A stretch of 64,000 nucleotides of DNA, taken from contig CAZINT010000001.1 in the NCBI GenBank assembly GCA_964540825.1, positions 219,396-283,395 of the forward strand, written 5' to 3'. The DNA is from an uncultured Gammaproteobacteria bacterium. GTDB taxonomy: Bacteria; Patescibacteriota; Patescibacteriia; Magasanikbacterales; GWA2-37-8. The notes under the pieces are model-generated. The model saw only the letters and a list, made by a program, of their open reading frames with translations. It was not told where the DNA came from and did not search any database. Below are positions 7,409-63,315 of this stretch, piece by piece (position 1 is the stretch's first letter; each line of letters begins with the position of its first letter). Both the position numbers and the translations under genes were made by a program.

Positions 7409-7452
7409 AAGGGCATCAACAATTCATGCGGCTTTGCCGCAGGAGGTCCAAA

Positions 7453-8205
7453 GTGGCGACGCACAATGCTCTCGGTGACCCCGATGGTCCAACCCCTCCC
7501 TATGAGGACACAGCGGAGCTTAAAATTCCGCCTTCGCTTCGTGTTCGAATCAAGCAGGGGTTGGGGTGGACCTACGAGGTCGTGCTCGTTCCGGTCTGGA
7601 ACCGTGGGTTGAAGCCGCTGACGTCACCCATCATCGTTCGGGTGCCCAGTGCCGTCTCGTTCATGCGGCAGCAGCGGTGGAACATCGCACTCTTCGCTGC
7701 TCTGCTCCTGGCTATCGTGCTTGCATACGTAGGTTACAAGTACGAGACTGCCCGCATGCGGGCTGCCTTCGTTCCGGCCGATCAGGGCGAGCACAGCACG
7801 GCGACACCTGTTGACCGTGATAGCGACGGTGTGGCGGACGAGACGGATCAGTGTCCCGATGTAGCGTCCGGCCCCACGCCGGATGCGAAGCGGCCCGGTT
7901 GCCCAGCGCCCGAGCAACCTGCTGCTCCGGTCCCGGTCTACCCTGACCTGTCGATCCCTGCGCCTGCCGCGTTGCCCGAAGAACCGCAAGCCGCTCCGCC
8001 CGCTGATGTGGATGGTGATCACGATGGGGAAGCGGCCGTCCCGTCCCGTCGACGTCACGTGCCGCATCGTAGGTTCAAGGCTGCGGTCGAGACGCCGCGG
8101 GCCTTCTGCCTGCGTATGCAGCGGGACCAGCGCTGGAGCCCCTGCTGCCAAGACGGCATCCCGGTCGCATGTTCGCCCGCTTCCTCAGCGCCCCATCGGC
8201 GCTAA
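7453..8205 (+). CDS. high-GC membrane/exported protein with thrombospondin-type-3-like Ca-binding motif (cassette A)
   Basis: GTG start 6 nt after AGGAGG, in frame with the track ORF at 7426. Internal TM helix WNIALFAALLLAIVLAYVGY. Motif DRDSDGVADETDQCPDV...KRPGCP matches the DxDxDGxxDxxDxCP...GCP TSP3/OmpA-linker repeat. Pro-rich. Near-saturated GC3. The C-terminal ~60 aa is Arg-rich and may be frameshifted. Confidence 0.4.
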   Translation: MATHNALGDPDGPTPPYEDTAELKIPPSLRVRIKQGLGWTYEVVLVPVWNRGLKPLTSPIIVRVPSAVSFMRQQRWNIALFAALLLAIVLAYVGYKYETARMRAAFVPADQGEHSTATPVDRDSDGVADETDQCPDVASGPTPDAKRPGCPAPEQPAAPVPVYPDLSIPAPAALPEEPQAAPPADVDGDHDGEAAVPSRRRHVPHRRFKAAVETPRAFCLRMQRDQRWSPCCQDGIPVACSPASSAPHRR

Positions 8206-8315: not shown

Positions 8316-8667
8316 GATTTGTTACGTAAATAGAAAACCACACAACTAGCCAAGAAGCTCGAGAGAGGCTTCAAAGGTTAGCCAAAAGACCTTGTTTTAG
8401 CCAATTCTCTCACCCCAGGGAGTTTTTTTAGCTAAGAATGAACTAAGGTAAGCGGATTTAGATCCTTTTACCTTAGATCCATTCTAGGGTCTAACGCTCT
8501 TTACAATATAACCCTAGTTAAAAACCTACCCACCAATAATCGGTGAAGTATGGCGCAGAGAATGAGTTACCCAATATTGAGTCATTCATTCTCTGTTCCA
8601 GCTTCATTGTGAAGTTGGGGGAGCTGGAACGCTCAGAAACGTCAACCTTTTCGCTGGAGAAAAGATC

Positions 8668-9834
8668 ATGAACAGCAAGCTCGCCTTTGTCATCGCCATC
8701 CTCGCCGGCCTCTCGTCCACCTCCACCGCCCACGCCTTGAGCAGCGCCCACGACTTCGGTCTGGTCGTCCTGGGTCCCACGGACGAGCCCATCCCGTCGT
8801 GGGACGGGAACCCGGGGTCGATGACCCCGGCGAACGTCTGCAAGGCCGAGGGCAAGATCATGGCCCTTCAGGAGCCGACCGACAAGATCCGTGGTGGCGC
8901 CGTCGCTCAGGATGACCTGACGGCCCGGCGCGGCACGGTGTCGTCGCCCCAGAAGTCGATCGGGATCGTCGCGAACCGCAGCCAGATCGCCGGCAAGCAC
9001 GCCGGCGCCGCCTACTGCGTCGCGAAGTCCCGTGTCCTCTTCGCCGAGGACGTCGAGCAGCTGAACAAGCTCCTCAAGATCCTCCACAGCTTCAACGGCC
9101 CCGACGGCATGACGCGCCTCCGCGCCCTGCTCGGCGACCTGCCGCAGGGCAAGGAGACGATCCGCGAGTGGGTCACCGCCGCCATCACGGCGGGCGATCA
9201 GGGCACTAGCCTCGACTCGGCCAACCCCTTCAGCCCCCTCGCGATCAAGATCGCCCAGCTCATCGCCGAGATCAATCAGATCAAGGTCGAGCTCGAGGCG
9301 CTCAAGGCCCGCGTCGGCCAGCTCGAGACCGCGGTCGCAGAGCACTCGGCTCAGATCGCCAAGCTCCAGCAGACGGGCCCTGTGACCGGTCGGACCTTCG
9401 ATCTTCAGCTCCAGGGCATCGCGAGTGGCAGCCGGTTCATGATCGGTCTCGGCGGTGGTGCGAACCTCGTGTTCCACCTTCCTGTGCCGCGCCTCAGCGT
9501 CAAGTTCGGTGGCGACCTCATGGCCGCCTTCGAGACGGTCGGGTCCAATCGTATGGGCCTCGGCTGGGACGCGCGTGCGTTCGTCCAGTATCAGCTGCGT
9601 GAGTGGCTGACCATTGGCGGCGGGCTCTACATCGTCGGTGATGCTGGTACGATCAACGGTACCCGGTCGTTCGACGTTGGCCCTGCGCTGGACGCCGAGT
9701 TCTGGGTTCACCCGTTCGTCGCCGTCAACGCCTTCGCCTTCATCGGTGGTGGCAAGCACAGCGCCAGCTGGGCCATGTCGCAGCTGGGCGGTGGTGGCGG
9801 TCTCGGGGTCGTCCTGCGTCCCTTCCGCAAGTAG
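8668..9834 (+). CDS. high-GC secreted protein: signal peptide, central coiled coil, Gly-rich beta-rich C-terminal domain (cassette B)
   Basis: SD GGAGAAAAG 5-6 nt upstream. Signal peptide MNSKLAFVIAILAGLSSTSTAHA. Heptad-like IAQLIAEINQIKVELEALKARVGQLETAV. C-terminal alternating hydrophobic beta pattern. GC3 about 90% by eye. Confidence 0.5.
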   Translation: MNSKLAFVIAILAGLSSTSTAHALSSAHDFGLVVLGPTDEPIPSWDGNPGSMTPANVCKAEGKIMALQEPTDKIRGGAVAQDDLTARRGTVSSPQKSIGIVANRSQIAGKHAGAAYCVAKSRVLFAEDVEQLNKLLKILHSFNGPDGMTRLRALLGDLPQGKETIREWVTAAITAGDQGTSLDSANPFSPLAIKIAQLIAEINQIKVELEALKARVGQLETAVAEHSAQIAKLQQTGPVTGRTFDLQLQGIASGSRFMIGLGGGANLVFHLPVPRLSVKFGGDLMAAFETVGSNRMGLGWDARAFVQYQLREWLTIGGGLYIVGDAGTINGTRSFDVGPALDAEFWVHPFVAVNAFAFIGGGKHSASWAMSQLGGGGGLGVVLRPFRK

Positions 9835-9987: not shown

Positions 9988-10224
9988 ATGTCGTTATTAA
10001 ATACAGCAGGTGCTTAGGAGTAGCCCATTAAAAATGGTCTTCTCCTAGACACTTGGCTCTGCCAAAAGTCTACGTTCTTTACAATCACATTGCTACTACT
10101 CAAAATGTTCTCCTGAAGGTTTCGCGGTTATCAGTACTTACTAATTATTTGGTAAGGTACTGGAAACCGCGAACCCGCTGCGTGTCTTAGGACACGCAGC
10201 ACCCACGACCACCAGGAGATGAAC

Positions 10225-10938
10225 ATGAACACGAACCACGTCCGCGCCCTGCTCACCGCCGCCCTGCTCACGCTCGCCCCGACCTTCGTCGTGGGCTGTG
10301 CCCCCGAGCCGATGGACGGCACGCCGTCCACGGTCATCGGCGACCGCGACGGCGACGGCACCAAGGACAACGTCGACAAGTGCCCCGACCTCGCCGGGCC
10401 CGGCAGCAACAACGGCTGCCCGGTCACCAACATGAGCGGGGGCGAGCCCGTGCCCGCCACCCTCACCGACGCGATCTGCTACGATCGGGACCACCACTAC
10501 CCCCACGCCTGCGCGGGGGAGTGCGTGACCAAGGTCCAGGACTCGCTGAACTGCGGCGCCTGCGGCCGCCGGTGCAAGCCGACGGTCGAGGCCTGCGAGA
10601 ACAGCGTCTGCATCCCGGCCGGCTCCGCCAAGTGGGGCGCCTGGGTCCAGAACGCCACCAACCGCACCCTGAACCTCACGGTCGGCCACACCGAGCTCGG
10701 CATCAGCGCCGTCGAGGAGCAGATCACGCTCGCCCCCGGCGCCTGGTGGGGCAACGGCAACTGGACCGGCGTCTACGCCTCCGAGAACCCCTGGAAGGAG
10801 AACGTGATGCAGGAGTCCCTCGCGGACTGCCAGCTCAAGTTCAACGGCAAGGGCCGCCGCGAGGTCGTCTTCAAGACGAACAACCGCACCGGCGTCGGCC
10901 GCTGCGAGTTCAAGACCGACGCGGAGGGTAACCTCTAG
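10225..10938 (+). CDS. high-GC Cys-rich lipoprotein with TSP3-like Ca-binding motif (cassette C)
   Basis: AGGAG 6 nt upstream of the second ATG (10225). Lipobox-like FVVGC. IGDRDGDGTKDNVDKCPDLAGPGSNNGCP is a TSP3-type repeat. Multiple Cys pairs. Five N-x-T sequons. Confidence 0.5.
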   Translation: MNTNHVRALLTAALLTLAPTFVVGCAPEPMDGTPSTVIGDRDGDGTKDNVDKCPDLAGPGSNNGCPVTNMSGGEPVPATLTDAICYDRDHHYPHACAGECVTKVQDSLNCGACGRRCKPTVEACENSVCIPAGSAKWGAWVQNATNRTLNLTVGHTELGISAVEEQITLAPGAWWGNGNWTGVYASENPWKENVMQESLADCQLKFNGKGRREVVFKTNNRTGVGRCEFKTDAEGNL

Positions 10939-11143: not shown

Positions 11144-11592
11144 AAGCAGGTTAGGCAGAGTAAGTACTAAGCAGAATAAGTTTTTATGTTAGATAATTTC
11201 TTTGGCTTTGTATCCAGCGGGTTAACAGCTTACCAACTTCTTCACACTGACTTCTTGCCTGATTATATTCTGATTCTTTTAGATAGTGTAAGTCGTGGGC
11301 GAGAATGAAGTGATATTTAGTTTCTTCGAGCGAAGCGTCAGCAATATTGTAAAATTTAATACTGTCTCGTAATTCTTTTCTTCTAAATCCTTCAACGATG
11401 TTAGTAGGTACTGAAGCAGCAGATCTTCGTATTTGGCTCGTTAAACCAAAGAGTTCGCTTTTTGGAAATTGGTTGGTAACTTTATAAACAAAAAGCACGA
11501 GCGTATGTGCCTTTTGCCAAACCTGTAATTCTGTAAAAACTTTTATTGTCGTCATGCTTATTCTGCTTAGGACTTACTCTGCCTAATCTGCT
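11144..11592. repeat. 37-bp inverted repeats (2 mismatches) bracketing the four-helix-bundle protein gene
   Basis: Left arm 11144-11180 aagcaggttaggcagagtaagtactaagcagaataag. Right arm 11556-11592 is its reverse complement apart from two mismatches. The arms abut the gene stop and start codons. Confidence 0.7.
11184..11555 (-). CDS. four-helix-bundle protein (23S rRNA intervening-sequence protein family, TIGR02436-like)
   Basis: 123 aa. LTSQIRRSAASVPTNIVEG and overall helical pattern typical of the family. Confidence 0.75.
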   Translation of the reverse strand: MTTIKVFTELQVWQKAHTLVLFVYKVTNQFPKSELFGLTSQIRRSAASVPTNIVEGFRRKELRDSIKFYNIADASLEETKYHFILAHDLHYLKESEYNQARSQCEEVGKLLTRWIQSQRNYLT

Positions 11593-11596
11593 TCGT

Positions 11597-15243: not shown

Positions 15244-15310
15244 TAAGCAGAGTAAGTACTAAGCAAAGTAAGTTTTGTGCTTACCTTGCTTACTCTGCCT
15301 AATCTGCTTA
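15244..15310. repeat. solo copy of the palindromic element seen at 11144-11592, between convergent genes
   Basis: taagcagagtaagtactaagcaaagtaag - ttttgtg - cttaccttgcttactctgcctaatctgctta. The arms are shortened versions of the 11144 and 11556 arms with no cargo gene. Confidence 0.6.
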
Positions 15311-15322
15311 CGTTGCTTTAAT

Positions 15323-30304: not shown

Positions 30305-30679
30305 TTATTCTTCCGGAAAGATTTGTTTACCCTGTTCATCGTAGAGAAGTATCGCCAGTACCGGGCATGACTGCGCAGACATAAGGAGCGTGTCGTCGTC
30401 GGCTGCGTCGGGGTCGACAATGTACGCCAGGTTTTCGTCATCCATCTGAAAGACACCAGGCGTAACGGCGACACACGAACGGGCCCCAATACACTTGGCC
30501 CGGTCAACAACAATGTGACGTATTTTCCCGGTGGCGCGAGCTCGATAATCATTTTTTTCAGGGAGTGGGAAGGGGAGTGGTGCGGTTGGCTCCATAGGAC
30601 GATTTGGTAAAGCTGTAAGCGGATTAGGCAGAATAGGCAAAGTAAGTATAATTTTAGCTTTGCTGAGGGTTATTGTCAA
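30305..30679 (-). CDS. ferredoxin-like protein
   Basis: CIGARSC...CP cluster-binding pattern. Confidence 0.45.
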   Translation of the reverse strand: MTITLSKAKIILTLPILPNPLTALPNRPMEPTAPLPFPLPEKNDYRARATGKIRHIVVDRAKCIGARSCVAVTPGVFQMDDENLAYIVDPDAADDDTLLMSAQSCPVLAILLYDEQGKQIFPEE

Positions 30680-31092
30680 CGTTTCAGATATGCTTCAAAC
30701 ACGGGGTACAGGTTTGGAATTACATTGGCCTGCATGTATTCTTTGGGGTCTATCCAGGCGTAGGCCGAGTGGTCGGTGCTAAGTGTTACGTGATCAGCTT
30801 CGGCTGTGCATTCAAAGAAAATACCAACAATTTGCCACGGTTCATCTTTAACCGTAGGCCGCCATTCGTTGACGAAGAACGGTTTGCCGATCGTTATCGC
30901 AAGCCCAGTTTCTTCCAGGACTTCACGCCGTAATGCATCGTCAAAGCGTTCGCCGGGCTGGATTCTGCCACCTACCACATCGTATTTGCTCGCATTGGTG
31001 CCATCTGCGTATTTATTGGATTCTTGCAGGACTAATATTTTGCCTTGGTAGGTAATAAAGGCCTTGGTAGCCACAAATAATTTTGGTTCCAT
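30676..31092 (-). CDS. NUDIX hydrolase
   Basis: Nudix box GGRIQPGERFDDALRREVLEETGL. Confidence 0.8.
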   Translation of the reverse strand: MEPKLFVATKAFITYQGKILVLQESNKYADGTNASKYDVVGGRIQPGERFDDALRREVLEETGLAITIGKPFFVNEWRPTVKDEPWQIVGIFFECTAEADHVTLSTDHSAYAWIDPKEYMQANVIPNLYPVFEAYLKR

Positions 31093-31096
31093 ACGT

Positions 31097-31423
31097 TTAA
31101 AAAATATCTCCTAAAAAATCGTCCTTGGCAATAGTGTCGAGTGTTGGGTGCACCAGTTTTTGCACTTCATTCTTGTCAATTTTTTCGGCAATCGTTTTGG
31201 TGTTGGCTTCGTGAATAATATATTCGTCATTAATCACCACGTTAGGGCCTTGTTCGCAGTAATCCACACATTCGGTAAAATCCAAATCAACTCGTTCGTT
31301 TTTTAAACCAAACGCCAGCCCAAAATGCTCTTCAAGCCGATTCATAATAGATTGTGAATTGCGCGCCGAGCATTTGTTGCCGCAGCAGACGCGAATTTGT
31401 TTAGGGGGCATACTGTTAAACAC
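31097..31423 (-). CDS. thioredoxin-like [2Fe-2S] ferredoxin (NuoE-like)
   Basis: CCGNKC ... CVDYC Cys pattern. Confidence 0.5.
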   Translation of the reverse strand: MFNSMPPKQIRVCCGNKCSARNSQSIMNRLEEHFGLAFGLKNERVDLDFTECVDYCEQGPNVVINDEYIIHEANTKTIAEKIDKNEVQKLVHPTLDTIAKDDFLGDIF

Positions 31424-31697
31424 CCATCATAACCCGAACTTCATCGGGTATTTTGTACGGCGGGTCAAAGGTAAGCTCTATGCTTACTTCCTGCCCGCTG
31501 CCGTCCAAAGCTTTTTTAATTTCCTCGTTAATTTGGGGGCCCCAGGGGCAAAAGGGGGTAGTATAGGTCATAAGAATATCGATTTTTTGGTCGGTAACGG
31601 TGAGTTTATAAATCAGGCCCATAGTCCAAATATCCAAAGCAATTTCAGGGTCTTTGACGGTTTTGAGTTTTTCGATTATCTGATCACGAGTAAACAT
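31416..31697 (-). CDS. Fe-S cluster assembly factor, DUF59/SufT-like
   Basis: DPEIALDIWTMGLIY and TPFCP motifs. Confidence 0.7.
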   Translation of the reverse strand: MFTRDQIIEKLKTVKDPEIALDIWTMGLIYKLTVTDQKIDILMTYTTPFCPWGPQINEEIKKALDGSGQEVSIELTFDPPYKIPDEVRVMMGV

Positions 31698-31701
31698 ACA
31701 G

Positions 31702-32430
31702 TTATTTATATTGTTCGTAGCCTTTGATTTCTATCTCCTTTGCCAACTCTTTCCCGCCAGATTTTACAATCTTTCCCTTTACCATAACATGTACAAAATC
31801 AGGCACGATGTATTCAAGAATGCGGTTGTAGTGGGTGATAAGTAACAATCCCTTTTCAGCTGTTCGGAATTTGTTGATGCCATCGGCGACAATGCGGAGT
31901 GCGTCGACATCGAGGCCGGAGTCGGTTTCGTCGAGGACAGCGTACGTGGGGTTAAGAAGAGCGAGTTGTAATACTTCAAGGCGTTTTTTTTCGCCGCCGG
32001 AAAAACCGATTCCGAGTGAGCGTTTGATAAACGCCAGGTCGATACTGAGACTGTTCATGGTTTCGGTTAGTTTTTTATGAAAGTCGAGCGGATTTTGCGG
32101 CTCGCCGCTAATTGCCTGCACCGCTGTACGTAGAAAATGCCCAACAGTAACACCTGCAAGCTCTGGTGGGTATTGCATGGATAAAAAGAGGCCGGCTTTG
32201 GCGCGTTTGTCGGGGGAGAGGGTGGTAAGGTCTTCACCCTTCAAGAGTATTTTACCGCTCGTAACGGTGTATTTAGGATGCCCGGCGAGCGTGTTGGCGA
32301 GCGTGGATTTGCCCGAGCCGTTGGGGCCCATAATGGCATGTACTTCGCCGGGGTTGATGACGAGACTTAGGTTTTCAATAATGATTTTATTGTCGGTAGT
32401 GATGGATAATTGTTGTAATTTAAGGGCCAT
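31702..32430 (-). CDS. sufC: Fe-S cluster assembly ATPase SufC
   Basis: Walker A GPNGSGKSTL and ABC signature. ATG at 32430 is preferred over the track TTG at 32454. Confidence 0.85.
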   Translation of the reverse strand: MALKLQQLSITTDNKIIIENLSLVINPGEVHAIMGPNGSGKSTLANTLAGHPKYTVTSGKILLKGEDLTTLSPDKRAKAGLFLSMQYPPELAGVTVGHFLRTAVQAISGEPQNPLDFHKKLTETMNSLSIDLAFIKRSLGIGFSGGEKKRLEVLQLALLNPTYAVLDETDSGLDVDALRIVADGINKFRTAEKGLLLITHYNRILEYIVPDFVHVMVKGKIVKSGGKELAKEIEIKGYEQYK

Positions 32431-32447
32431 AACGGAGGTGGATAAGA

Positions 32448-32476
32448 TTGACAAAATGCTTAAAATGTGCTATACA
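32448..32476 (+). promoter_or_regulatory. consensus sigma70 promoter for cassette D (antisense to suf operon)
   Basis: TTGACA, 17 nt, TGTGC TATACA. The -35 element overlaps the sufC 5' end. Confidence 0.55.
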
Positions 32477-32567
32477 TAGGGGTAACTTGTGTAAACTATA
32501 GAACTTTAGTTTTGGCTAAAATGCTGTGGTTTCCGGACGTTATGTCCTTGATTTCGGAGGAAACACC

Positions 32568-32816
32568 ATGTGGCTCTTTGATCGTTGGGGCGATTTGTTC
32601 CAGGTCAGCATACTGGCAGGAATTGCCGTCCTCCCGGTCGTGCTGGTTGCCTTTCTGGTTGTGATCCAGGTTGCGATCTTGATCGTTCGTCGCAGCTTCG
32701 GCACGTTGGAGTACGGTCTCCTCTTGGGGGCTGCTCTCGCCTTCATCTTCCCCAAGAGGTCGATCGCCGCGCTCATCGTAGCGGCGCTGCTTGTTGCCCT
32801 CACCCTCCATCACTAA
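32568..32816 (+). CDS. high-GC small membrane protein, 82 aa (cassette D)
   Basis: GGAGG 7 nt upstream of the ATG. Two to three TM helices. GC-rich codons. Confidence 0.4.
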   Translation: MWLFDRWGDLFQVSILAGIAVLPVVLVAFLVVIQVAILIVRRSFGTLEYGLLLGAALAFIFPKRSIAALIVAALLVALTLHH

Positions 32817-32834
32817 GCCTGGGCATGCCTTCGC

Positions 32835-33242
32835 TTAGTTCGACCCGGTCTTCGTGACCGGGTTCGCTGTTTTTAAGCTATGCTGCAACGCCTTGAGACC
32901 CAGTAGGGCACAGCGCATGCGGGTTGGGTTTAGGTTTTTTAGGCCAAGTAAATCTAAAAGTGTTTCACCAGTTAGTTGCTCGATTTCTTGTTTGGTTTTA
33001 CCTTTGACATGTTCAGTAAGTAAGGAAGTGGCGGCTTGTGAAATGGCGCAGCCGTCGCCTTGGTAACCAATATCTTCCAGCCTATCACCGGCATCAAATT
33101 TAAGAAAGAGCTCGACTTTGTCGCCGCAGAGTGGATTGAATTCGACAAAACTGATATCAAAAACAGCCGGTCTTTTTTTGTTTAGCGGATGGCGATACAA
33201 ATCAAGGAGTAGTTCGGAATAAAGTTCTTGGTCAGTGTCCAT
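32835..33242 (-). CDS. sufU: SufU/IscU-type Fe-S scaffold
   Basis: NPLCGDKVEL ... GDGCAISQA motifs. Confidence 0.8.
   Translation of the reverse strand: MDTDQELYSELLLDLYRHPLNKKRPAVFDISFVEFNPLCGDKVELFLKFDAGDRLEDIGYQGDGCAISQAATSLLTEHVKGKTKQEIEQLTGETLLDLLGLKNLNPTRMRCALLGLKALQHSLKTANPVTKTGSN
32842..32875 (+). terminator. intrinsic terminator of cassette D
   Basis: gacccggtc-ttcgt-gaccgggtt then gctgttttt. Lies within the 3' coding end of sufU on the opposite strand. Confidence 0.55.
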
Positions 33243-33245
33243 ATA

Positions 33246-33644
33246 TTATCTGTTTGCAAGCTGGCCTAAGCCACAGAGGAGCAATAACAATGGTGGTACA
33301 GCAGCGGCAAGCACGCGAACAAACTGGTGACGACAATGTATTTTTTCGTAGATGTATCCCGAAACAAAGGCGGTGAATGACCAAAGTATAATCGTGCACA
33401 AAGTAAACAGGCTTAAAGACATTGTATATGTTTGCGTATCAATAAGAGCTGATAGGCCAATGAGATTGCAAAGTCCAATGCAGGAAAGCCAAAAAATTGA
33501 GCCAATGGAAGCGAGGAGTGCAACTGGAATATTCCACAAGCTCGGGTCTGATTTCACAAACAAAAAATCATTAATAATGATCCAACCAAAAATGCCAATG
33601 AGTCCAAGGGCGGTGTAGAGGGTTGCCTCAAAGCGGGGTTTCAT
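33246..33644 (-). CDS. small membrane protein
   Basis: 132 aa, 4 TM helices. Confidence 0.4.
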   Translation of the reverse strand: MKPRFEATLYTALGLIGIFGWIIINDFLFVKSDPSLWNIPVALLASIGSIFWLSCIGLCNLIGLSALIDTQTYTMSLSLFTLCTIILWSFTAFVSGYIYEKIHCRHQFVRVLAAAVPPLLLLLCGLGQLANR

Positions 33645-33646
33645 AG

Positions 33647-34840
33647 TTAGTTAAAAATTTTCTTAACGTCCTTAATGCCGATAACGAGTTTATCAATATC
33701 TTCAGTAGTATTGTAGACCCCAAACGAAACGCGAGTCGTACCGCCGAGTTCTAAATAATCCATAAGCGGCATGGTGCAGTGGTGGCCGGCACGAACAGCG
33801 ATGTGGTGGCGATTGAGCACTTCGGCAATATCGTGCGGGTGAATGTCGGGAATGACAAAAGAAATAATTCCTTTGTGCGTGGCAATATTTTTGGTTCCGA
33901 TAATACTTACTTCGGGCGCTAATTTTTCGAGTGCGTAGCTGAGCAGCTGATTGTCGTGCGTCTGAATTGCGTCCCAGCTGATAGCGGAAACAAAATCGAT
34001 CGCTGCACCAAGCCCGATCGCTCCGGCGATGTTCGGTGTGCCGGCCTCAAATTTGTTTGGTGCTTCGGCCCAGGTGGCAGAGGTATAGGTAACGCTCTCA
34101 ATCATATCGCCGCCATAGAAAAATGGTTCCAGCGTTTCGAGGTTTTTCTTTTTGCCATAGACAATGCCGATGCCGGTCGGTCCGTAGATCTTATGCCCGG
34201 AGAAAACGAGGTAATCGCAATCAAGTTCGCGAACATTTATTGGGGTATGGGCAATTGCTTGGGCGGCATCAATAATCGTAGTTGCCCCGCGCACTTTGGC
34301 AAGATCAATGATTTTTTGGATTGGTACGAGCGTGCCAAGCGTGTTTGATAGTGCAGTGACACTAACGATTTTTGTTTTACTGTCGATAAGTTCGGCGGCC
34401 GAAGCAAGGTCGATTTCGGTGCTTTCAGAAAGTTCAATAAACCTGAGTTCAAAATCAAATTCCTTGGCCATTTCTTGCCAAGGGATAATATTGGCATGGT
34501 GTTCGAGGCGGGTGAGAACAACGTTGTCGCCTGACCCAAGATTTTTACAAAGACTTTGGGCAAGCAAATTCAGTCCGTGTGTTGTACCGGACGTAAAAAT
34601 AATTTCATCTGCGTCTGCGCCGATGAAGCGGGCAACTTTTTCTTTAGCAGCTTCATAAGCGGTGCTCGCTTGTTCGCTGAGTGCATACACGCCACGGTGA
34701 ATGTTGGCGCGATAGTTGGTGTAATACTCGTTCATGGCATCAAGCACAACCCGGGGTGTCTGTGTGCTAGAGGCGTTATCAAGATAGGCCAAGTCGGGTT
34801 GGTTTTGGAAAATAGGAAAATTGTTTTTATTGGTATTCAT
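33647..34840 (-). CDS. sufS: cysteine desulfurase SufS
   Basis: Class V aminotransferase fold, SGHKIYGP PLP-lysine region, catalytic Cys region. Confidence 0.85.
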   Translation of the reverse strand: MNTNKNNFPIFQNQPDLAYLDNASSTQTPRVVLDAMNEYYTNYRANIHRGVYALSEQASTAYEAAKEKVARFIGADADEIIFTSGTTHGLNLLAQSLCKNLGSGDNVVLTRLEHHANIIPWQEMAKEFDFELRFIELSESTEIDLASAAELIDSKTKIVSVTALSNTLGTLVPIQKIIDLAKVRGATTIIDAAQAIAHTPINVRELDCDYLVFSGHKIYGPTGIGIVYGKKKNLETLEPFFYGGDMIESVTYTSATWAEAPNKFEAGTPNIAGAIGLGAAIDFVSAISWDAIQTHDNQLLSYALEKLAPEVSIIGTKNIATHKGIISFVIPDIHPHDIAEVLNRHHIAVRAGHHCTMPLMDYLELGGTTRVSFGVYNTTEDIDKLVIGIKDVKKIFN

Positions 34841-34852: not shown

Positions 34853-35437
34853 TTAATCTTCAAGTAACCAGCTCACCACCAGGAAGCTTACCGCTTCGAG
34901 CCCGATTATGCCAGCGATATAGCGGACATTTTCAAAAAAGATCCCGATGATAATGAACACGCTGCAGCCCAGTATGCCCACGATGCGTGCGCAGCCGCTG
35001 GCGGTTTTGAGCGATTTGACTTTGGTAAGAGCTAAAAAATACGAAACACCAAGACAGAAAATATTGAAAAGAAGTGGTGCCCACCAGGTTGTTTCAGTTC
35101 GTTCAAAAGGGAAGTGGCCAAGTGCCAGCCAGATATTTACCCCAAGCAGCGCGAGGGTAATACTAATTTTACATACTTCGCTAAATGTTTTTGGAACAAT
35201 TGATTTTGCTACTCGATTGGGATCGTTCAAGAAAGTTTTGATACGACCGAAAAAAGCGCGTTCAATGCTAAAGAAAACAAAAAACCAGACAAGAAGGGGG
35301 ATGATAACACTGCTCGTGATATTCTCGACAAAACTTTGAAAAATAAAAAAACCAACGGCATTAAAAACCAAGAGGCTGCCCAGCGCCCCCCAATAGGAAA
35401 GCGGGTATACTTCGTGCATGTGTTGTTGGTGCTGCAT
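34853..35437 (-). CDS. membrane protein (suf-operon associated)
   Basis: 194 aa, multiple TM helices. Confidence 0.4.
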   Translation of the reverse strand: MQHQQHMHEVYPLSYWGALGSLLVFNAVGFFIFQSFVENITSSVIIPLLVWFFVFFSIERAFFGRIKTFLNDPNRVAKSIVPKTFSEVCKISITLALLGVNIWLALGHFPFERTETTWWAPLLFNIFCLGVSYFLALTKVKSLKTASGCARIVGILGCSVFIIIGIFFENVRYIAGIIGLEAVSFLVVSWLLED

Positions 35438-35445: not shown

Positions 35446-36864
35446 TTAACCAACCGCACCTTCCATCTCAAGTTCAATCAGTTTATTCAGTTCAAGGGCA
35501 TATTCAACTGGAAGTGCTTTTACAATGGGTTCGATGAAGCCAGAAACTACTAAACGAATCGCTTCTTGCTCGCTGAGACCTCGGGATTGCAAAAAGAAAA
35601 TTTCTTCTTCACCGATTTTACCGACGCGGGCTTCGTGTGACACGGTGACTTGTTCGTTTTTAATTTTTAATTCCGGAATCGTATTCGCGATCGCGTTTTT
35701 CCCAATAAGAAGTGCATCACAGACCATGGAGGCGTTCACGTGTTCGGCTACCGGGGTAATATGAATGAGGCCGCGGAACGTATTGATGCCGCCGTTGACG
35801 GAAATAGATTTGGAAACAATTGTCGAACTGGTGTTGGGTGCGGCGTGAATCGCTTTGGCACCCGTATCCTGGTTTTGGCCAGGGCCGGCAAAGGCGATGC
35901 CGAGACTGTCCGAATGTGCGCCCCGACCGCGGAGGATCGACGATGGGTAGAGCATAGTTACACCCGAACCCATATTGCCATTAACCCATTCAATAACGCC
36001 GTCTTCGTCAACCAGGGCGCGTTTTGTATTCAGGTTATAGGTATCTTTGGACCAGTTTTCAATGGATGAGTAACGAACGCGTGCCCCGGCATGAACAAAA
36101 ATTTCCACGCACCCGGCATGGAGCGAGCTTGCGCCATAGCGCGGTGCACTGCAACCCTCGATATAGTGGAGCTGGGAACCTTCGTCGGCAATAATAAGAG
36201 TGTGTTCAAATTGGCCGCCTTGTTTCGCGTTCATGCGGAAGTAGGCTTGCAAAGGTAAATCAATGGTAACATTTTTTGGTACATAAATAAATGTGCCGCC
36301 ACTCCAAACAGCGCCATGGAGCATGGTAAATTTATGATCATGTGCCGGTACACACTGCGTCATGAAATATTTTTTCACCAGGTCAGGATATTTTTGGACA
36401 GCCGTATCCATGTTTTCAAAAATAACACCTTGTTCGGTCCATTGTTTTTTGAGATTGTGATAGACGATGTCGGAATCGTATTGTGCGCCAACGCCAGCGA
36501 GGGCCTTTTTTTCAGCTTCGGGAATGCCCAGGCGATCGAAGGTTTTTTTAATATTTTCGGGCACGTCTTCCCAGCTTGTACTTTCGCCCGTGTCAGGACG
36601 GACAAAATAGGTGATGGCGTCGAGATCAAGTTTGGTTAAATCTGGGCCCCAGGGAGGAAGGGGTTTGTTTTTAAATAATTCTAAAGCATGGAGGCGTTTT
36701 TGAAGCATCCAATCTGGTTCATTTTTTTGTTTGGCAATCTCGCGAACCAAGGCTTCGCTGAGGCCCGCAGTAGCCCGGTATTGATTATCTTCCGGGTTGG
36801 CGTCGTCGTAGAGTGAGCGATCTTGGCCAAGTTCCGCAGCGTTGTCTTTGCTAATTTTGGACAT
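35446..36864 (-). CDS. sufB: Fe-S cluster assembly protein SufB
   Basis: 472 aa. SufB/SufD beta-helix C-terminal region. Confidence 0.85.
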   Translation of the reverse strand: MSKISKDNAAELGQDRSLYDDANPEDNQYRATAGLSEALVREIAKQKNEPDWMLQKRLHALELFKNKPLPPWGPDLTKLDLDAITYFVRPDTGESTSWEDVPENIKKTFDRLGIPEAEKKALAGVGAQYDSDIVYHNLKKQWTEQGVIFENMDTAVQKYPDLVKKYFMTQCVPAHDHKFTMLHGAVWSGGTFIYVPKNVTIDLPLQAYFRMNAKQGGQFEHTLIIADEGSQLHYIEGCSAPRYGASSLHAGCVEIFVHAGARVRYSSIENWSKDTYNLNTKRALVDEDGVIEWVNGNMGSGVTMLYPSSILRGRGAHSDSLGIAFAGPGQNQDTGAKAIHAAPNTSSTIVSKSISVNGGINTFRGLIHITPVAEHVNASMVCDALLIGKNAIANTIPELKIKNEQVTVSHEARVGKIGEEEIFFLQSRGLSEQEAIRLVVSGFIEPIVKALPVEYALELNKLIELEMEGAVG

Positions 36865-36903: not shown

Positions 36904-36932
36904 ATCTTAGCTAATTTTAGCGATTTTGTCAA
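36904..36932 (-). promoter_or_regulatory. consensus sigma70 promoter of suf operon
   Basis: Reverse strand reads TTGACA, 17 nt, TAAGAT. Confidence 0.5.
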
Positions 36933-36935
36933 TCT

Positions 36936-37640
36936 ATGACGGCTCCGGTACCTGAATATACGCTTACCCTCGTCAAGAAGACGGTTATTGCCCGCGATGT
37001 CTTGGAATTTCGGTTTACGAAACCTGCCGGTTTTGTCTTTAAAGCCGGGCAATTTTTGCAATTCCACATTCCGGTTGAAACGGGTATGGTGCTGCGGAGT
37101 TATTCCATAGCTTCGGCGCCCAAGGACGACTACATTGAAATTTGTCTTAAAGTTTTGCCCAACGGCAAAGCATCGGTGTTTTTATCGGCGCTTGAGGTGG
37201 GGGGGAGTGCTGTGGTGCAGGGGCCGGAAGGGCATTTTGTGTGTAAAGACGAACATGCCCCGCATAAAATTTTTATTGCGACCGGCACGGGTCTTGCGCC
37301 TATAATGAGTATGATACCTGAACAGCTTGCTGTGATACGAGAAGGGGCTCAGGTGCATGTGTTGTTTGGTGTTCGAAATGAAGCGGATCTTTTTTGGGCG
37401 GATCGTTTGATACGCTTTGAAAAAGAATATTCCCATTTTTCGCACCACGTGACTTTGTCGCAGCCCGATCAACCAACGGGTTGGCAGGGTTTGGTTGGAC
37501 GCGTTACATCGCATGTTCCACATCATCATTTGGAAGCAGAATATTATTTATGCGGCAGTTTAGAAATGGTGAAAGATGTGCGTAAAATACTGCTTGATAA
37601 AGGTGTCCCAATGAAACAAATTCATTTTGAAATTTTTTAA
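36936..37640 (+). CDS. FNR-like FAD/NAD(P)-binding oxidoreductase
   Basis: RSYSIAS FAD-binding motif, GTGLAPIMS NAD(P)-binding motif. Confidence 0.7.
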   Translation: MTAPVPEYTLTLVKKTVIARDVLEFRFTKPAGFVFKAGQFLQFHIPVETGMVLRSYSIASAPKDDYIEICLKVLPNGKASVFLSALEVGGSAVVQGPEGHFVCKDEHAPHKIFIATGTGLAPIMSMIPEQLAVIREGAQVHVLFGVRNEADLFWADRLIRFEKEYSHFSHHVTLSQPDQPTGWQGLVGRVTSHVPHHHLEAEYYLCGSLEMVKDVRKILLDKGVPMKQIHFEIF

Positions 37641-38011: not shown

Positions 38012-38219
38012 ATTTGCGTCCTAGAATATAGGATAATCGTTCTTTACAAAGGAAATGATGAAGCAGGGCTCCCTGTTTGTGAGCGTTCCTGGTTACGAAG
38101 AAAGCTAATCTTAGCGGTTATTTTTCTCTGTAACGGGAGCTCCCCGGAGCTTAAAGTCTGGAATTCAGACTTTCCCTACTTCTCTTTCCTCAAAACTACA
38201 CACAGGAGTGTACGGTACA

Positions 38220-38804
38220 ATGTTCACCAAAAGTCTCCTCGCCGTGGTTCTGTTCACGCTTCTCGGTCTCTTGTCCTCGGCTCGTGCTGAATGTCACGCA
38301 GCGTCGGCAGGGCCCCACCACAGCATGGAAGTTGCTGTTAGCCTCGGATCTACGATTTGGGTCACTCACCCCGTAGAAGCCACCTTTGGTGCCGTACTCG
38401 GCATGCCGGTCAGCCACGATGGCTGCTGGTGGGTGCGCGGTGCCATCGAGCTCTACAAGCCGATCGGCAACCAGCCGCCTGGTTTCGCCGGCATTCTTTC
38501 GCTCACGCGGCGTATCAACCCCCGTTTGGAGCTTGGTGTTGCCGCCAGTGCCTTGTTGCCGTTTACGGAAGAGGCATACCACCACCCCGAAGAGGGGGCT
38601 GGGCTGCCGCCTCGTGAAGGTGTCATCCTTGTAGCTGGTCCGCAACTTCGCCTTCAGCCGACCGCGGCCTTTCCGACCATCGTCGTTACCCCCATGGGTG
38701 GTTACGAAATGAACGTCGGCAACGTGCTTGGTCTTTCGGTGGAGTTCGAGGCTGACCTCACTGGGGCCGTCTTCGACCTCGTGCACCGCCTGCGTCGCCA
38801 CTGA
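38220..38804 (+). CDS. high-GC secreted beta-rich protein (cassette E)
   Basis: Signal peptide MFTKSLLAVVLFTLLGLLSSARA. Alternating hydrophobic pattern suggests a beta fold. GC-rich. Confidence 0.45.
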   Translation: MFTKSLLAVVLFTLLGLLSSARAECHAASAGPHHSMEVAVSLGSTIWVTHPVEATFGAVLGMPVSHDGCWWVRGAIELYKPIGNQPPGFAGILSLTRRINPRLELGVAASALLPFTEEAYHHPEEGAGLPPREGVILVAGPQLRLQPTAAFPTIVVTPMGGYEMNVGNVLGLSVEFEADLTGAVFDLVHRLRRH

Positions 38805-50797: not shown

Positions 50798-51364
50798 ATG
50801 AGTAGAGAATTCTCAGAAAGAAGACAAGAAGTAGTAACCTCGCAGCGTTTTGAAATAGTGCTTAGTTCCGAAAAGGATTGTGCAATGCTTGAAACGTGGT
50901 TAAGTACTCTTATTGGTACTGAAGCGGCAGAGCAATGTGTTTTTGCTATGCGCAGTACGGTGCAAAAGGACTTTACGAATCACTGCAAAGACGCAACGCA
51001 AGAATTGGGTAAGGCCTTGGCTGAGCGATTTGGCGGCGAAGAATCTTTTTTTGATGTAGTCCCGGGGGCATCTTTTAGCGATGTTAGGAGCTATGCTCCC
51101 TTAGACAAGACGAGGTATCGCGGAGATTATCATAGTGTTGGTCTTTTAGAATTAGTTTCACAGCACAAAGAGTCTTTTTGTCTTATAGTGGATCTTACCT
51201 TTTATACAGTTTCGCCTGATGTAAAAAAGAATGGAGTGTTAGTTGCTTCCACTCCAGGTGGGCACGGCGAGGCTCTGAAGATGCTTGAAAATGAGTATGG
51301 TGGTTCATGGAAAGTGGAATTTAAATTTAATCCTCAAAAAAATAATTTTGAATTTGAAGGGTAG
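50798..51364 (+). CDS. hypothetical protein
   Basis: 188 aa. Last gene of the island before a terminator. Confidence 0.35.
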   Translation: MSREFSERRQEVVTSQRFEIVLSSEKDCAMLETWLSTLIGTEAAEQCVFAMRSTVQKDFTNHCKDATQELGKALAERFGGEESFFDVVPGASFSDVRSYAPLDKTRYRGDYHSVGLLELVSQHKESFCLIVDLTFYTVSPDVKKNGVLVASTPGGHGEALKMLENEYGGSWKVEFKFNPQKNNFEFEG

Positions 51365-51388
51365 GGAATATTTTGGATGAATAAAAAA

Positions 51389-51414
51389 GACAAACTCTAA
51401 GTTTGCCTTTTTTA
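51389..51414 (+). terminator. intrinsic terminator
   Basis: gacaaact-ctaa-gtttgcc then ttttttat. Confidence 0.6.
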
Positions 51415-51525
51415 TATAGATGAATTATTGAAGGGGCAATTACTTATCGCCTCAATAGTACCCCCGAAATGGTTTTGATTAACGTTGTCAGAATGTCGGG
51501 GTTGCATTCTGAGGTGGCTGTGCGC

Positions 51526-52872
51526 TCAGCGCCGGGTCAGGATGACGCGGAGGTTCTTGGGGGAAAGGCCGGTCGAGGCGTGCATACGAACACTCGCGGG
51601 GTCGATTACGCGGATGTTGAAGAGCGCGAGGGCCAGGCCGATGATGTAGCTTCCTTCAAGAAGGGCGAGCCGTTCGCCGAGGCAGTTCTGGGTGTCGTGC
51701 CAGAAGGGGTAGTAGTTCCACTTGGCCGGTTCGCCGCTATCAAACCGCTCCGGGGCGAATTGCTCGGGCCTATTCCAGTAGCGCGGGTCGCGGTGGGAGA
51801 GGAAGCTCGAGAAGAGCACGTTCGTCTTGGGCGGCAGGAGGTACGGGCCGAGCTCGGTCCAGTCCGCCGTGCTCCGCATGTTGAGCCAATTGGGCGGATA
51901 GAGGCGGAGCGACTCTTTGAGGACGAGCTTGAGGTCGCGGAAGCGGCTATCCTTGGCGAGGTTGGCCGAAGCGCCGCTCGTCAGGAGGTAGTTGCCGCAC
52001 TCCCGCGTGCGTGCCAGCCACTCAGCGTTGCCACTGAGCAACCAGAACGTTGAGGCGGCCATGCTGGCGGTGGTGACGTGGCCAGCGAAGACCGTGCTGA
52101 GCGCCAGGCTCTCGATGAGATTATCAGGCAGCTCCTGACCGTTTTGGCGGTCTTTGAGGAGGGCGCCGACGAGTCCGCTCGCGGATATGTCGCCGTGCTT
52201 GATGAGCGACTGAACGAGATCGTGGAGCCGCCGCTCTTCGTAGATGTATCGCCGGGACCGCTCGGTGAGCGGGAAGTTCCGGAGGAACAGGTGACTGAGG
52301 GGGTTCTGAAACCCGCGGGCCGACTCCTCAAACAGGAAGTTGAGTCCGTCGAGAAGATCCGCGTCGAGACCGCGCAGGCCCGAACTCCCGAACACGACGA
52401 CATCGAGGATGTCGAGCACGAGGAAGTTGCAGAGCTCCAAGAGGTCCACGGGCTTCCCGGTCGGCCACTTGTTGATCGTGGCGAGGATGCGTGTGTAGAT
52501 GTTGTCCATCATCGCCTTGAGGTTCGTACCGCCGAGCTGGGGGCCGAGTTTGCGGCGCTGGACAAGGTGGTTCGGTCCGTCGGTTGTGAAGATGGATTCA
52601 TTGCCGAGAATCGGCTTCATGATGCGGCGCACGAGGCTGGGGCGCACGAAGTTCTGGCTGGTCGAGATCTCGCTGAGGTCGTCGGGGCAGAGGGTGAGCA
52701 CCATCCGCATTGGCCAGTGAGCGAGGGTGACTCGCTCGCGAAGGACGGTGTTCCCGACCATGCCCGTGGCCCCGCGCAGATAGCGAAGCGGGTCGCGCTG
52801 CATTTCGCGCTGAAACGTGAGCAGCGGCACCAATCCGCCGTAGGCAGGTGGAAGGCGTTTTTTTCTCCCCAT
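51526..52872 (-). CDS. cytochrome P450 (atypical), high-GC cassette F
   Basis: 448 aa. I-helix FAGHVTTAS, K-helix ESLRLYPP (ExxR), FAPERF (PERF), Cys-pocket PFWHDTQNCLG (FxxGxRxCxG with the G and R substituted). AGGAGA upstream. GC3 near-saturated. Confidence 0.7.
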   Translation of the reverse strand: MGRKKRLPPAYGGLVPLLTFQREMQRDPLRYLRGATGMVGNTVLRERVTLAHWPMRMVLTLCPDDLSEISTSQNFVRPSLVRRIMKPILGNESIFTTDGPNHLVQRRKLGPQLGGTNLKAMMDNIYTRILATINKWPTGKPVDLLELCNFLVLDILDVVVFGSSGLRGLDADLLDGLNFLFEESARGFQNPLSHLFLRNFPLTERSRRYIYEERRLHDLVQSLIKHGDISASGLVGALLKDRQNGQELPDNLIESLALSTVFAGHVTTASMAASTFWLLSGNAEWLARTRECGNYLLTSGASANLAKDSRFRDLKLVLKESLRLYPPNWLNMRSTADWTELGPYLLPPKTNVLFSSFLSHRDPRYWNRPEQFAPERFDSGEPAKWNYYPFWHDTQNCLGERLALLEGSYIIGLALALFNIRVIDPASVRMHASTGLSPKNLRVILTRR

Positions 52873-52983
52873 GGGCTTGTTTCTCCTTGTCCGTATATAG
52901 CACTAACCGACCATAGCATAAGGCGAATATGGCCGCAACTGCCCCAGTTGCCCTCCTAAAACTGCTGTGCTATAGTCAAAAAC

Positions 52984-56199: not shown

Positions 56200-56670
56200 C
56201 TAACGCAAGCCCGGCGCCTCGCACTGGAGGTAGCCGTCGTGCGGGACGACGACGAGCCCCCTTTGGCAGGATTGCCTGCACTCGTAGCTGCCGCCGACCA
56301 AGTCGACGACCCACGGGGGACGGCAGGCCTTGTCCGCGTTCGGGTCGGCGTACAGGCCGGATGGGATCGGCGGGGTCTGGTGGTTGTTCCGGCATTCCAT
56401 GGCGTTCATGGCGCCGGTTCCAGGGATTGGCAGCTCGATGTAGCCCGGCGGACAGCTCATGAGCGGCTGACCCTGCTCATCGGTCATGAGCTGGTAGGCC
56501 TGGGTCGCTGGGTGCGCCAGGTAGCGACCCGGCGCGGACACCCACTTGTACAGGGTCTGCCGCGGGTTGGGCGATGGCGGCCGGGTGAAATCGCTGCCGC
56601 TGCTGTACGTCTCCGCACAGCCGGCCATCATCATGGCGCACAAAAGAACGGTGTAAAGAGCGTATCGCAT
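56200..56670 (-). CDS. high-GC Cys-rich lipoprotein (cassette G)
   Basis: Lipobox MMAGC. 156 aa, 10 Cys. GGAAGGAAG SD upstream. Confidence 0.45.
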   Translation of the reverse strand: MRYALYTVLLCAMMMAGCAETYSSGSDFTRPPSPNPRQTLYKWVSAPGRYLAHPATQAYQLMTDEQGQPLMSCPPGYIELPIPGTGAMNAMECRNNHQTPPIPSGLYADPNADKACRPPWVVDLVGGSYECRQSCQRGLVVVPHDGYLQCEAPGLR

Positions 56671-62166: not shown

Positions 62167-63315
62167 CTAGCCGCCGTAGGAGTAGACGATCGGCCTGAGC
62201 GGGAGGGTCTGGCCCGAGGCGGTCAGACCCGCGAGAACTCCGTCACTCCAGCTGATGCCGTTGTTCGGCACGCTGACCTCGAGGCTCTGTGCCCCGCCGG
62301 TCCCGAAGTCGGTGGTGTCGAACGTGCACGTGATGGTCTTGCTCTGACCAGAGGAGATGGTGGAGGCGATGGGGAGGTTCAGGTTCCCGTTGATGGGGTC
62401 GCCCTTCCTGTAGAGGTGGCTACCGATCAGCGAGCCGTTCGAGTAGCACGCCAGCAGCCGGTCGTTGTTGACATTCTCGATGCTCGACTTCAGCGCGAGC
62501 TTCAGCGAGCTGACCGGGGTCGTGTAGTTGCCGTTGTTCAGGACGTTGGTGACGACGACCTTCACGATCGTCTGGGTCGCAGAGGGCGACGACGGACCTT
62601 TGGGGCTGTCGCTGGCCCACTCGACCCCGATCTTGGCGCGGTAGGTGGTGGCCGTGGCCGCGTGTGCCCCGAGCGCTGGGGACCCGGTCTTGTTGTCCTT
62701 GACGACCACCTTCAGCGTCTGCGCGGTCTTGACGTTCACCGCGGTGATTGGGGTGAAGTTCTCGAGCGGGGCGAGGATGGCCGGGGTGGCCTGCTGTCCG
62801 GTGGTGGTGAACCCCTCGTTGTAGTCGGCGATGTCGACCAGCTGGCTGATGTAGCGGCAGCTGTTGTTGGGCACGAACAGGTTGAGGTTGGGGTTGATCG
62901 CGTGGCTGTAGCCCGCCGCGATCTCCTGGCCGTTCACGTACTGCTCGAAGTTGGCCGCGGTCGCGCCGATGGGCGCCCCGTTCTCGTCGATGTACCGCGC
63001 GTTGCGGAAGATGGGCGGCTGCATGCCGTTGTAGCGCAGCGAGCTGATCACCTTCTCGAGGCGTCCACCGGCCTCCGGCGTGCCCGTCACGCAGATGGTG
63101 TAGGTGGCGACCTTGACGCCGATGGCGCCCATGACGTAGTTGGTGGGGCCGGGCGTGCTCTGATCGATCGCGACCGTGAGCGTGCCCGGGTTCTCGTAGT
63201 CGGGCAGGTTGAGGGTCGGGACCGGCTTGTCCGGCTCGTCGCCGGTCACCATCCCGCCGCAGCCGAAGGCGGCGGTGAGGGCCAGGATCATGAGGTGCTT
63301 GTGCATCTGCTTCAC
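62167..63315 (-). CDS. high-GC beta-rich lipoprotein, 382 aa (cassette H)
   Basis: Lipobox AAFGCGG. GAAGGAG SD 8 nt upstream. Thr/Asn/Gly-rich beta pattern. GC3 near-saturated. Confidence 0.5.
   Translation of the reverse strand: MKQMHKHLMILALTAAFGCGGMVTGDEPDKPVPTLNLPDYENPGTLTVAIDQSTPGPTNYVMGAIGVKVATYTICVTGTPEAGGRLEKVISSLRYNGMQPPIFRNARYIDENGAPIGATAANFEQYVNGQEIAAGYSHAINPNLNLFVPNNSCRYISQLVDIADYNEGFTTTGQQATPAILAPLENFTPITAVNVKTAQTLKVVVKDNKTGSPALGAHAATATTYRAKIGVEWASDSPKGPSSPSATQTIVKVVVTNVLNNGNYTTPVSSLKLALKSSIENVNNDRLLACYSNGSLIGSHLYRKGDPINGNLNLPIASTISSGQSKTITCTFDTTDFGTGGAQSLEVSVPNNGISWSDGVLAGLTASGQTLPLRPIVYSYGG

Follow-up and report, generated by a model that had tools for sequence, protein, structure and literature searches.

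A small transcription unit lies inside the operon that serves to assemble iron-sulfur (Fe-S) clusters, suf, of an uncultured bacterium placed among the Patescibacteriota (Magasanikbacterales; deposited as an uncultured Gammaproteobacteria bacterium, GenBank assembly GCA_964540825.1), on the strand opposite to that of the operon. It sits in the 404-nt gap between sufU and sufC, within a 64,000-nt stretch of contig CAZINT010000001.1 (positions 219,396 to 283,395) that we call the window and by which all coordinates below are numbered. Our analysis supports a view of this unit as self-contained, compositionally foreign, and antisense to the suf operon, and comparison among relatives suggests what looks like a conserved chassis, made up of promoter and leader, with an exchangeable payload, rather than a random insertion scar. 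With modest confidence, we favor a model in which the unit is an antisense module resembling noncontiguous operons, or excludons, built from that conserved chassis and a replaceable payload. If the architecture works as we propose, an antisense unit has divided a core operon for Fe-S assembly, and the regulatory part of this unit is conserved while its coding part is freely exchanged. It would represent a natural noncontiguous operon outside model organisms, in which the function of the antisense RNA could be separated from that of the protein by comparing species. A layout of this kind is already known; what is new here is the combination of a conserved structured leader with an exchangeable small open reading frame (ORF) as payload.

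Pfam and NCBIfam matches identify the suf genes, which occupy the minus strand, and the small unit is on the plus strand between sufU and sufC, as a sequence-only reading of the same DNA had proposed. The ORF, promoter, and terminator placed by that reading are all present at its coordinates. The unit opens with a sigma-70-type promoter matching consensus (32448-32476, +), in which a -35 box TTGACA (32448-32453) and a 17-nt spacer ending in an extended -10 TGn (32468-32470) precede the -10 box TATACA (32471-32476), placing the likely transcription start near 32483. Its resemblance to the suf operon and tRNA-Glu promoters fits a native consensus. A structured 5' leader (32483-32548, +) is predicted to form hairpin 1 at 32493-32532, with 15 pairs, and hairpin 2 at 32535-32547, with 4 pairs (GGAC...GUCC). 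The Shine-Dalgarno sequence GGAGG (32556-32560, +) stands 7 nt before the ATG of an 82-amino-acid (aa) ORF (32568-32816, +), and this ribosome-binding site (RBS) is strong and exposed. An intrinsic terminator (32842-32875, +) closes the unit, consisting of a 9-bp GC-rich hairpin (32842-32864) followed by CGCTGTTTTT; the 64-nt segment around it (32817-32880) has a folding energy of -25.4 kcal/mol (z = -3.0). The hairpin coincides exactly with sufU codons 127-135, the last nine, just where it had been described. At the other end, the promoter lies 18 nt upstream of the sufC ATG, so that the small gene and sufC point away from each other in a divergent pair. The proposed overlap of the -35 box with the 5' end of sufC holds only if sufC begins at TTG 32454, but ATG 32430 is the start indicated both by homology (MALKLQQL versus MSLTISDL) and in the public annotation, and with that start the two do not overlap.

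The 82-aa product is very hydrophobic (grand average of hydropathy, 1.58), with two to three hydrophobic segments and the ending ...TLHH, without a charged tail, and is probably located in the membrane. An AlphaFold model of moderate confidence (mean predicted local distance difference test score, 71.6) shows one long helix at the N terminus plus two short hydrophobic ones. No family match was found in Pfam (also at E values up to 10), NCBIfam, PHROGs, or PADLOC, and no match among PDB sequences or by Foldseek searches of the PDB with the AlphaFold model; a JGI metagenome scan and two IMG/VR scans for the small proteins returned nothing, and neither the window nor 700 kb of related loci contains a paralogue. 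Across a word-indexed search of 5.8 billion clusters and a full HMMER search of 1.84 billion representatives, the sole homologue is P0001, a 77-aa protein encoded in a related metagenome-assembled genome (L003), where its gene likewise lies between sufU and sufC with its position and orientation unchanged. Between the two ORFs, dN is 0.35 and dS is 1.17, a dN/dS ratio of about 0.30; the N-terminal 12 codons contain 0 nonsynonymous and 3 synonymous changes, and dN/dS is about 0.15 over the C-terminal 22 codons. As part of the favored model, and on balance, we consider that the protein is probably translated and is under purifying selection.

Public gene calls tell a different story for this gap, placing on the minus strand an acidic ORF of 104/105 aa (32496-32813; L001 10433-10747), and the public annotation of the identical contig lists this 104-aa ORF rather than the small gene on the plus strand. 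Were it real (32499-32813 without its stop, or 32496-32813 from a GTG with the stop), it would be an ordinary gene of the operon, with the plus-strand ORF as its antisense shadow. The choice of gene callers, the position between sufU and sufC on the operon strand, and a codon register that mirrors the plus-strand frame could all be cited for such a gene. However, it is shortened to 62 aa in L003, is missing from two further module-bearing relatives (L095 and L090), has no homologue but itself in the 5.8 billion clusters, and has no similarity to the one in-operon ORF found at this junction on the operon strand (in L007, described below). The substitutions separating the window from L003 fall at plus-frame third positions, which are minus-frame first positions. 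We rejected the minus-strand ORF as a real gene: the evidence contradicts it, leaving it highly improbable, and the plus strand is the coding strand. The case exposes a systematic annotation error, as gene callers tend to pick the wrong strand in the GC-rich inserts of this lineage.

Relatives in which the junction is intact indicate how the unit arrived. In L089 (SufS 82% and BipA at least 90% identical to those of the window) and in the more distant L006 (SufS 58% identical), sufU and sufC overlap by ATGA with nothing between them. We fetched 24 further loci in which sufU is followed by sufC, and in 21 of them the gap measures -20 to +15 nt; two of the remaining three have a gap of about 74 nt, and the third, L007, has a sense-strand 110-aa ORF. 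Because sufU and sufC overlap or adjoin in these outgroups, the module is derived, having been inserted at a junction whose two genes were translationally coupled, and the synteny comparison thus bears out the proposal that a unit was inserted between sufU and sufC. The arrangement, with a small gene between two genes that are adjacent or overlapping as one operon in outgroups, is that of a noncontiguous operon. The ORF in L007 (513-845; SufU 59% identical to that of the window) is acidic, unrelated to the small gene, of backbone GC content, and at the same junction, which indicates that the junction has accepted insertions more than once.

Four species-level lineages carry the module, namely, the window itself, L003, L095, and L090/L091, with SufS DNA identities to the window of 86.6% (L003), 85.3% (L095), and 82.2% (L090). 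The idea that the unit marks a recent insertion scar is not borne out, given a module shared by four lineages, a dN/dS ratio near 0.3 between orthologues, and a promoter and leader conserved with covariation. The sequence-only reading had also held that an inserted cassette would be the wrong explanation if related genomes had the same small membrane protein as a conserved native suf component with backbone-like GC. Relatives do have a small membrane protein here, but it is still rich in G+C at third codon positions (GC3), it is unrelated to the window protein in two of them, and deeper relatives have none.

The four lineages share the sufC-proximal flank, the promoter, which is nearly identical in L003, L090, and L095, and a leader of about 70 nt, and beyond these elements the module changes. 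Between the window and L095, the DNA is about 93% identical up to position 32548, similarity breaks off sharply some 20 nt short of the start codon, and it returns inside sufU near codon 124. Of the three relatives, only L003 has a homologue of the segment from 32549 to 32870 (+), which comprises the RBS, the small ORF, and the terminator hairpin and represents the replaceable payload; L095 and L090 have unrelated sequence there. The payload ORFs encode 82 aa in the window and 77 aa in L003, which are homologous, and 63 aa in L095 and 46 aa in L090, which are unrelated, with no DNA or protein similarity detectable between the three payload types. All three types are hydrophobic, have a GC3 of 0.70 to 0.73, and bring a Shine-Dalgarno-like site and a hairpin terminator of their own; the terminators of the window and L003 differ by a single substitution, in the loop. 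Leaders and payloads do not sort together, as the window and L095 share one leader variant and L003 and L090 another, while the payload is common to the window and L003. Such reassortment points to recombination within the locus.

The C terminus of SufU follows the payload. It reads ...SLKTANPVT(K/R)TGSN in the window and L003, ...ALKIQK in L095, ...SVLTP in L090, and ...SLAHAETLANHI in the cassette-free L089. Residues 125-135 of the window protein (TANPVTKTGSN, 32838-32870) are encoded by the module terminator, and, as the C terminus varies with the payload type, the odd tail is a by-product of a payload terminator meeting the sufU frame. Calling this tail unusual is fair with respect to the nearest relatives, as 24 residues follow the last Cys compared with 10 to 19 in those proteins, but the wider family spans 10 to 27.

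The leader itself gives a further indication of what is being retained. All four leaders fold into the same two hairpins, with standard pairs in 98.7% of cells and five pairs changed on both sides; only 2 of 500 shuffles matched the pairing or covariation score, and controls in which the pairing partner was slid were at most 51% paired. Given that the covariation comes from only four sequences, these data are suggestive, not conclusive, of a structured RNA. There are 14 G-U cells, and the structure is 98.7% paired when read on the plus strand versus 80.3% on the minus strand, which argues that the structural constraint acts on a plus-strand RNA. This strand specificity indirectly supports the predicted activity of the promoter. 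No other copy turned up when 210 kb were searched with a covariance model built from the leader, and Rfam reported only tRNAs in the window at the gathering threshold and, in the gap, one insignificant match at E values up to 1.

The composition of the small gene sets it apart from its surroundings. Its GC content is 0.578 compared with 0.468 for the window, and G+C at the first, second, and third codon positions is 0.64, 0.36, and 0.735. The GC3 value exceeds that of all 4,778 82-codon windows drawn from 21 backbone genes (mean, 0.461; standard deviation, 0.072; maximum, 0.646), so that the high-GC description stands beyond the backbone range for third positions, but bulk GC is only moderately distinct, as some native stretches also reach 0.578. 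A Logan contig with 100% identity and a contig of a different sequencing run with 99.7% identity also contain the segment, and given this recurrence in independent contigs it is not an assembly chimera.

Foreign composition invites the view that the small gene is a passive passenger, acquired horizontally and tolerated with no effect on suf, with sufC expressed from a promoter of its own that we failed to recognize. GC3 and the use of Shine-Dalgarno sites do differ from those of the backbone, as in at least seven other single-gene islands of the window, the junction took other insertions, such as the 110-aa sense-strand ORF in L007, and the payloads are unrelated between species. What a passenger would not lead us to expect is a promoter and leader conserved with compensatory changes in four species while the payload changes, a pattern that points to selection on the chassis itself. 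Neither consensus scan revealed a promoter-like or terminator-like site on the minus strand of the gap (32455-32834), and a looser scan for minus-strand promoters across 32400-32900 and its L003 counterpart also found none, although atypical promoters may escape a consensus scan. The lack of a minus-strand promoter in two species speaks against the passenger explanation, which we regard as improbable. It also means, together with the lack of a terminator in the gap, that the distal genes are probably read through from the suf promoter.

These considerations lead us back to a model of a noncontiguous operon with a conserved chassis and a replaceable payload. In it, an antisense unit is lodged in an ancestrally translationally coupled sufU-sufC junction and consists of two layers. 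The first, the chassis, combines a native-consensus promoter, an extended -10, and a two-hairpin leader of about 70 nt. The second, the payload, comprises a Shine-Dalgarno site, a small ORF that is GC3 rich and encodes a hydrophobic product, and a terminator of the intrinsic type that has been absorbed into the sufU reading frame. SufC, the DUF59 protein, and the ferredoxins would most likely come from transcripts that start at the suf promoter (36932-36904, -) and read through the module in antisense. The anatomy, the coding strand, selection, the polarity of the insertion, the leader structure, and the exchange of payloads are shown by the data above; we infer that both strands of the gap are transcribed and that the two transcripts repress each other: convergent RNA polymerases would collide, and the complementary RNAs would form duplexes to be cut by RNase III-type enzymes. 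With suf strongly transcribed, the small gene would be silenced, and strong transcription of the small gene would lower distal suf expression relative to sufB-sufS-sufU, with the plus-strand RNA acting via interference or processing rather than by masking a start site. Antisense regulation of Fe-S assembly, as the sequence-only reading had suggested, is thus a plausible fit to the architecture.

Several points weigh against this model. The promoter and terminator calls are consensus matches, the -10 box ends in A (TATACA), and the promoter rules of the organism are drawn from only a few examples. SufC could be expressed from an unrecognized promoter of its own. One orthologue pair lies behind the selection signal, and the middle part of the protein is weakly constrained (dN/dS of about 0.56). 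The unrelated payloads of L095 and L090 argue against a conserved, specific protein partner of the Suf machinery. In addition, the plus-strand RNA would start about 53 nt from the sufC start codon, which means that it would not directly mask sufC translation initiation.

In described excludons, including their extreme form, the noncontiguous operons, polymerase collision and RNase III cleavage of complementary RNAs lead to mutual repression (PMC11034616), the Staphylococcus aureus menE-menC...ytkD locus being one example (PMC11034616; Saenz-Lahoya 2019; Iturbe 2024). The suf RNA would likewise be fully complementary to the mRNA of the embedded gene, with mutual repression expected. In contrast to those cases, the layout here comes from sequence alone, the host operon is the suf operon of an uncultured lineage, and the embedded unit joins a structured leader that is conserved to a payload that is swapped among close relatives. 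Antisense transcription within an Fe-S assembly operon, predicted here, has a precedent in Rhodobacter sphaeroides, where internal antisense promoters tune the isc-suf operon (PMC6956336). Those promoters lie inside or between genes without an embedded protein-coding gene, and IscR, Irr, and OxyR were shown to bind (PMC6956336), whereas the module described here includes an embedded protein gene and we identified no regulator site.

The main rival to this model is a type I toxin-antitoxin-like module, in which the hydrophobic peptides are membrane toxins and the suf read-through RNA is the antitoxin, the peptide is made only when suf transcription falls, and payload turnover is the usual diversity of toxins. 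Long structured 5' leaders are typical of type I toxin mRNAs. The module shares with such systems a small hydrophobic ORF, a structured 5' untranslated region like that of the toxin mRNAs, a complementary antisense RNA, and high sequence diversity; its three payload types are all small and hydrophobic (46, 63, and 77 to 82 aa). The published description gives type I toxins a length of less than 60 aa, a single transmembrane domain, and a C terminus that is charged (PMC5961336), which fits the 46-aa L090 payload, with its one hydrophobic segment and C terminus KKAIRRSPR, and toxin-antitoxin systems are among the described noncontiguous operons (PMC11034616). The window protein does not fit, however, as it is longer than 60 aa, has two to three hydrophobic segments, and ends in HH without a charged tail. 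There is no dedicated antitoxin small RNA gene, and our consensus scan detected no promoter for one in 32400-32900 or in the L003 counterpart, within the same limits for atypical promoters. A near-consensus promoter and an exposed, strong RBS would be unusual for a toxin, and none of Pfam, NCBIfam, PADLOC, or PHROGs offers a match. We therefore consider a toxin-like role possible, if unlikely.

A further parallel concerns the exchange of payloads. Integron cassettes are promoterless ORFs ending in a hairpin-forming repeat, driven by a fixed upstream promoter, and exchanged between strains. The module resembles them as an exchangeable promoterless ORF with a terminal hairpin behind a fixed promoter. 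It differs from them in having one slot per locus and no array, and its hairpins are short, terminator-like stems. No integrase or recombinase is in the Pfam list of the 20-kb L001 locus around the module, a serine resolvase occurs about 16 kb from the module in L090 and L091 only, and inspection of payload boundaries, made without a dedicated attC model, revealed no convincing attC cores (RYYYAAC ... GTTRRRY). We set aside TTTAAG, considered as a target-site duplication at the module ends, as a mere 6-mer.

The operon that hosts the module runs along the minus strand from its own promoter (TTGACA, a 17-nt spacer, and TAAGAT; 36904-36932), and profile matches place SufB, SufC, SufS, and SufU in their families. 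The cluster begins with sufB (35446-36864, Pfam and NCBIfam; TIGR01980 at 675 bits, cutoff 346) and continues through TM194, encoding a membrane protein without a known family (34853-35437); sufS (33647-34840, Aminotran_5, 465 bits); and TM132, encoding another such membrane protein (33246-33644). The 135-aa product of the next gene (32835-33242) scores 73 bits against NifU_N (cutoff 22) and 90.8 against TIGR01994, below the cutoff of 92.5, and is accordingly named SufU/IscU-like. Beyond the gap are sufC (31702-32430, 242 aa from the ATG; TIGR01978 at 322 bits, cutoff 213) and, distal to it, genes for a DUF59 protein (31416-31697) and a thioredoxin-like 2Fe-2S ferredoxin (31097-31411), both recognized by Pfam/NCBIfam, a Nudix gene (30676-31092), and, at the end of the cluster, a Fer4 ferredoxin gene (30305-30640). 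No sufD was seen in the cluster. The two membrane proteins, both encoded on the sense strand within the cluster, are lineage specific: TM194 is conserved across the clade at 55 to 90% identity, and TM132 is missing from L089 and L006 and merely 24 to 29% identical in L003. The small-gene promoter region (32430-32472) and the suf promoter region (36908-36950) form a 43-nt inverted repeat that is 72% complementary, a likeness that extends upstream of the -35 box (CGGAG...ATAGATTGACAAAAT) and may reflect a shared consensus, a duplication, or a site for a common regulator.

The sufU-sufC module is one of at least eight single-gene islands in the window, whose GC3 ranges from 0.66 to 0.99 compared with 0.43 to 0.53 in the backbone. 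The seven others, with GC contents of 0.61 to 0.70 and a GC3 spanning the same 0.66 to 0.99, are at 7426-8205, 8668-9834, 10219-10938, and 38208-38804 on the plus strand and at 51526-52872, 56200-56670, and 62167-63315 on the minus strand. All seven are equipped with a TTGACAAAA...TGnTATA promoter of the native type, a leader that is long and AT rich, and a terminator, and several products have signal-peptide, lipobox, or transmembrane features; one is a P450. Searches of Pfam, PHROGs, and PADLOC with the seven gave no match except the P450 and a faint TSP3/STIG1 similarity. Recent transfer from a sampled donor was rejected, as the best non-self match to the P450 island is 31% identical. The other suf-bearing metagenome loci have no comparable islands; in four of them, with low GC, local GC rises only marginally, to about 0.51.

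Translation signals also divide the islands from the backbone. Of the 21 backbone genes whose start regions were checked (for example, gatC at 56868 and PLD at 52984), 20 have no Shine-Dalgarno site and one has a distant match, and several appear leaderless, with a -10 box 6 to 8 nt before the ATG. Island genes, in contrast, carry GGAGG, AGGAG, or AAGGAG at normal spacing; a pattern search flagged five of eight, and another two can be counted if translation really starts at a nearby in-frame ATG. The islands point to accessory genes of an unusual kind, GC rich and equipped with the Shine-Dalgarno sites that the genome otherwise lacks.

The region adjacent to bipA provides a second case of turnover. 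The island at 38208-38804 evolves fast, its protein being 72%, 51%, and 42 to 47% identical where BipA is at least 90% identical. Counterparts are at 9222-9803 in L095, 9237-9809 in L089, 8895-9260 in L090, 2893-3483 in L097, and 431-997 in L006. No homology to the window island was detectable in the L003 genome or in L006, and the L006 island retains the homologous promoter and early leader. All versions are GC rich, with a GC3 of 0.60 to 0.71. Payload replacement between close relatives is seen at two slots. A tentative and rather doubtful extension would place the sufU-sufC module within a genome-wide set of fixed native slots, present in this lineage, that receive and exchange promoterless, GC3-rich payloads. 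Under the same doubtful proposal, a slot would consist of a consensus promoter and a long AT-rich, sometimes structured leader, and the payload would bring its own Shine-Dalgarno site and terminator and encode mostly envelope proteins. If true, such slots would constitute a system of integrase-less cassette capture and exchange fed from a GC-rich gene pool, and the genome-wide pattern of GC-rich payloads is a more novel lead than the suf module itself.

Among motifs tried for the islands, a cassette-specific promoter motif was rejected, as the 27-nt pattern matches only four islands and the suf and tRNA-Glu promoters are nearly as similar. TTAGCCMAAAA was not enriched overall, with five of its six matches in island promoter or leader regions. 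A motif of the form (C)G(T/C)TCTTTACAA(T) has exactly three copies in the window (0.66 expected), at 8498-8506, 10076-10084, and 38041-38049 (+), all on the sense strand within 5' leaders of GC-rich islands, and it recurs in the homologous leader of the L006 island (about 1296-1304, -). For the P450 island, the sole assembly product in another run is a 1.8-kb contig (L088, equivalent to 51090-52901) that ends 29 nt past the island on one side, which might reflect strain-level presence or absence or a break in coverage at island edges. Elsewhere in the window, a repeat of about 37 to 53 nt (TAAGCAGAGTAAGTACTAAGCA...) forms 95%-complementary inverted arms (11144-11180 and 11557-11593) around a 123-aa ORF (11184-11555), with further intergenic copies at 15244-15311 and at 30615-30667, the latter just upstream of the Fer4 ferredoxin gene.

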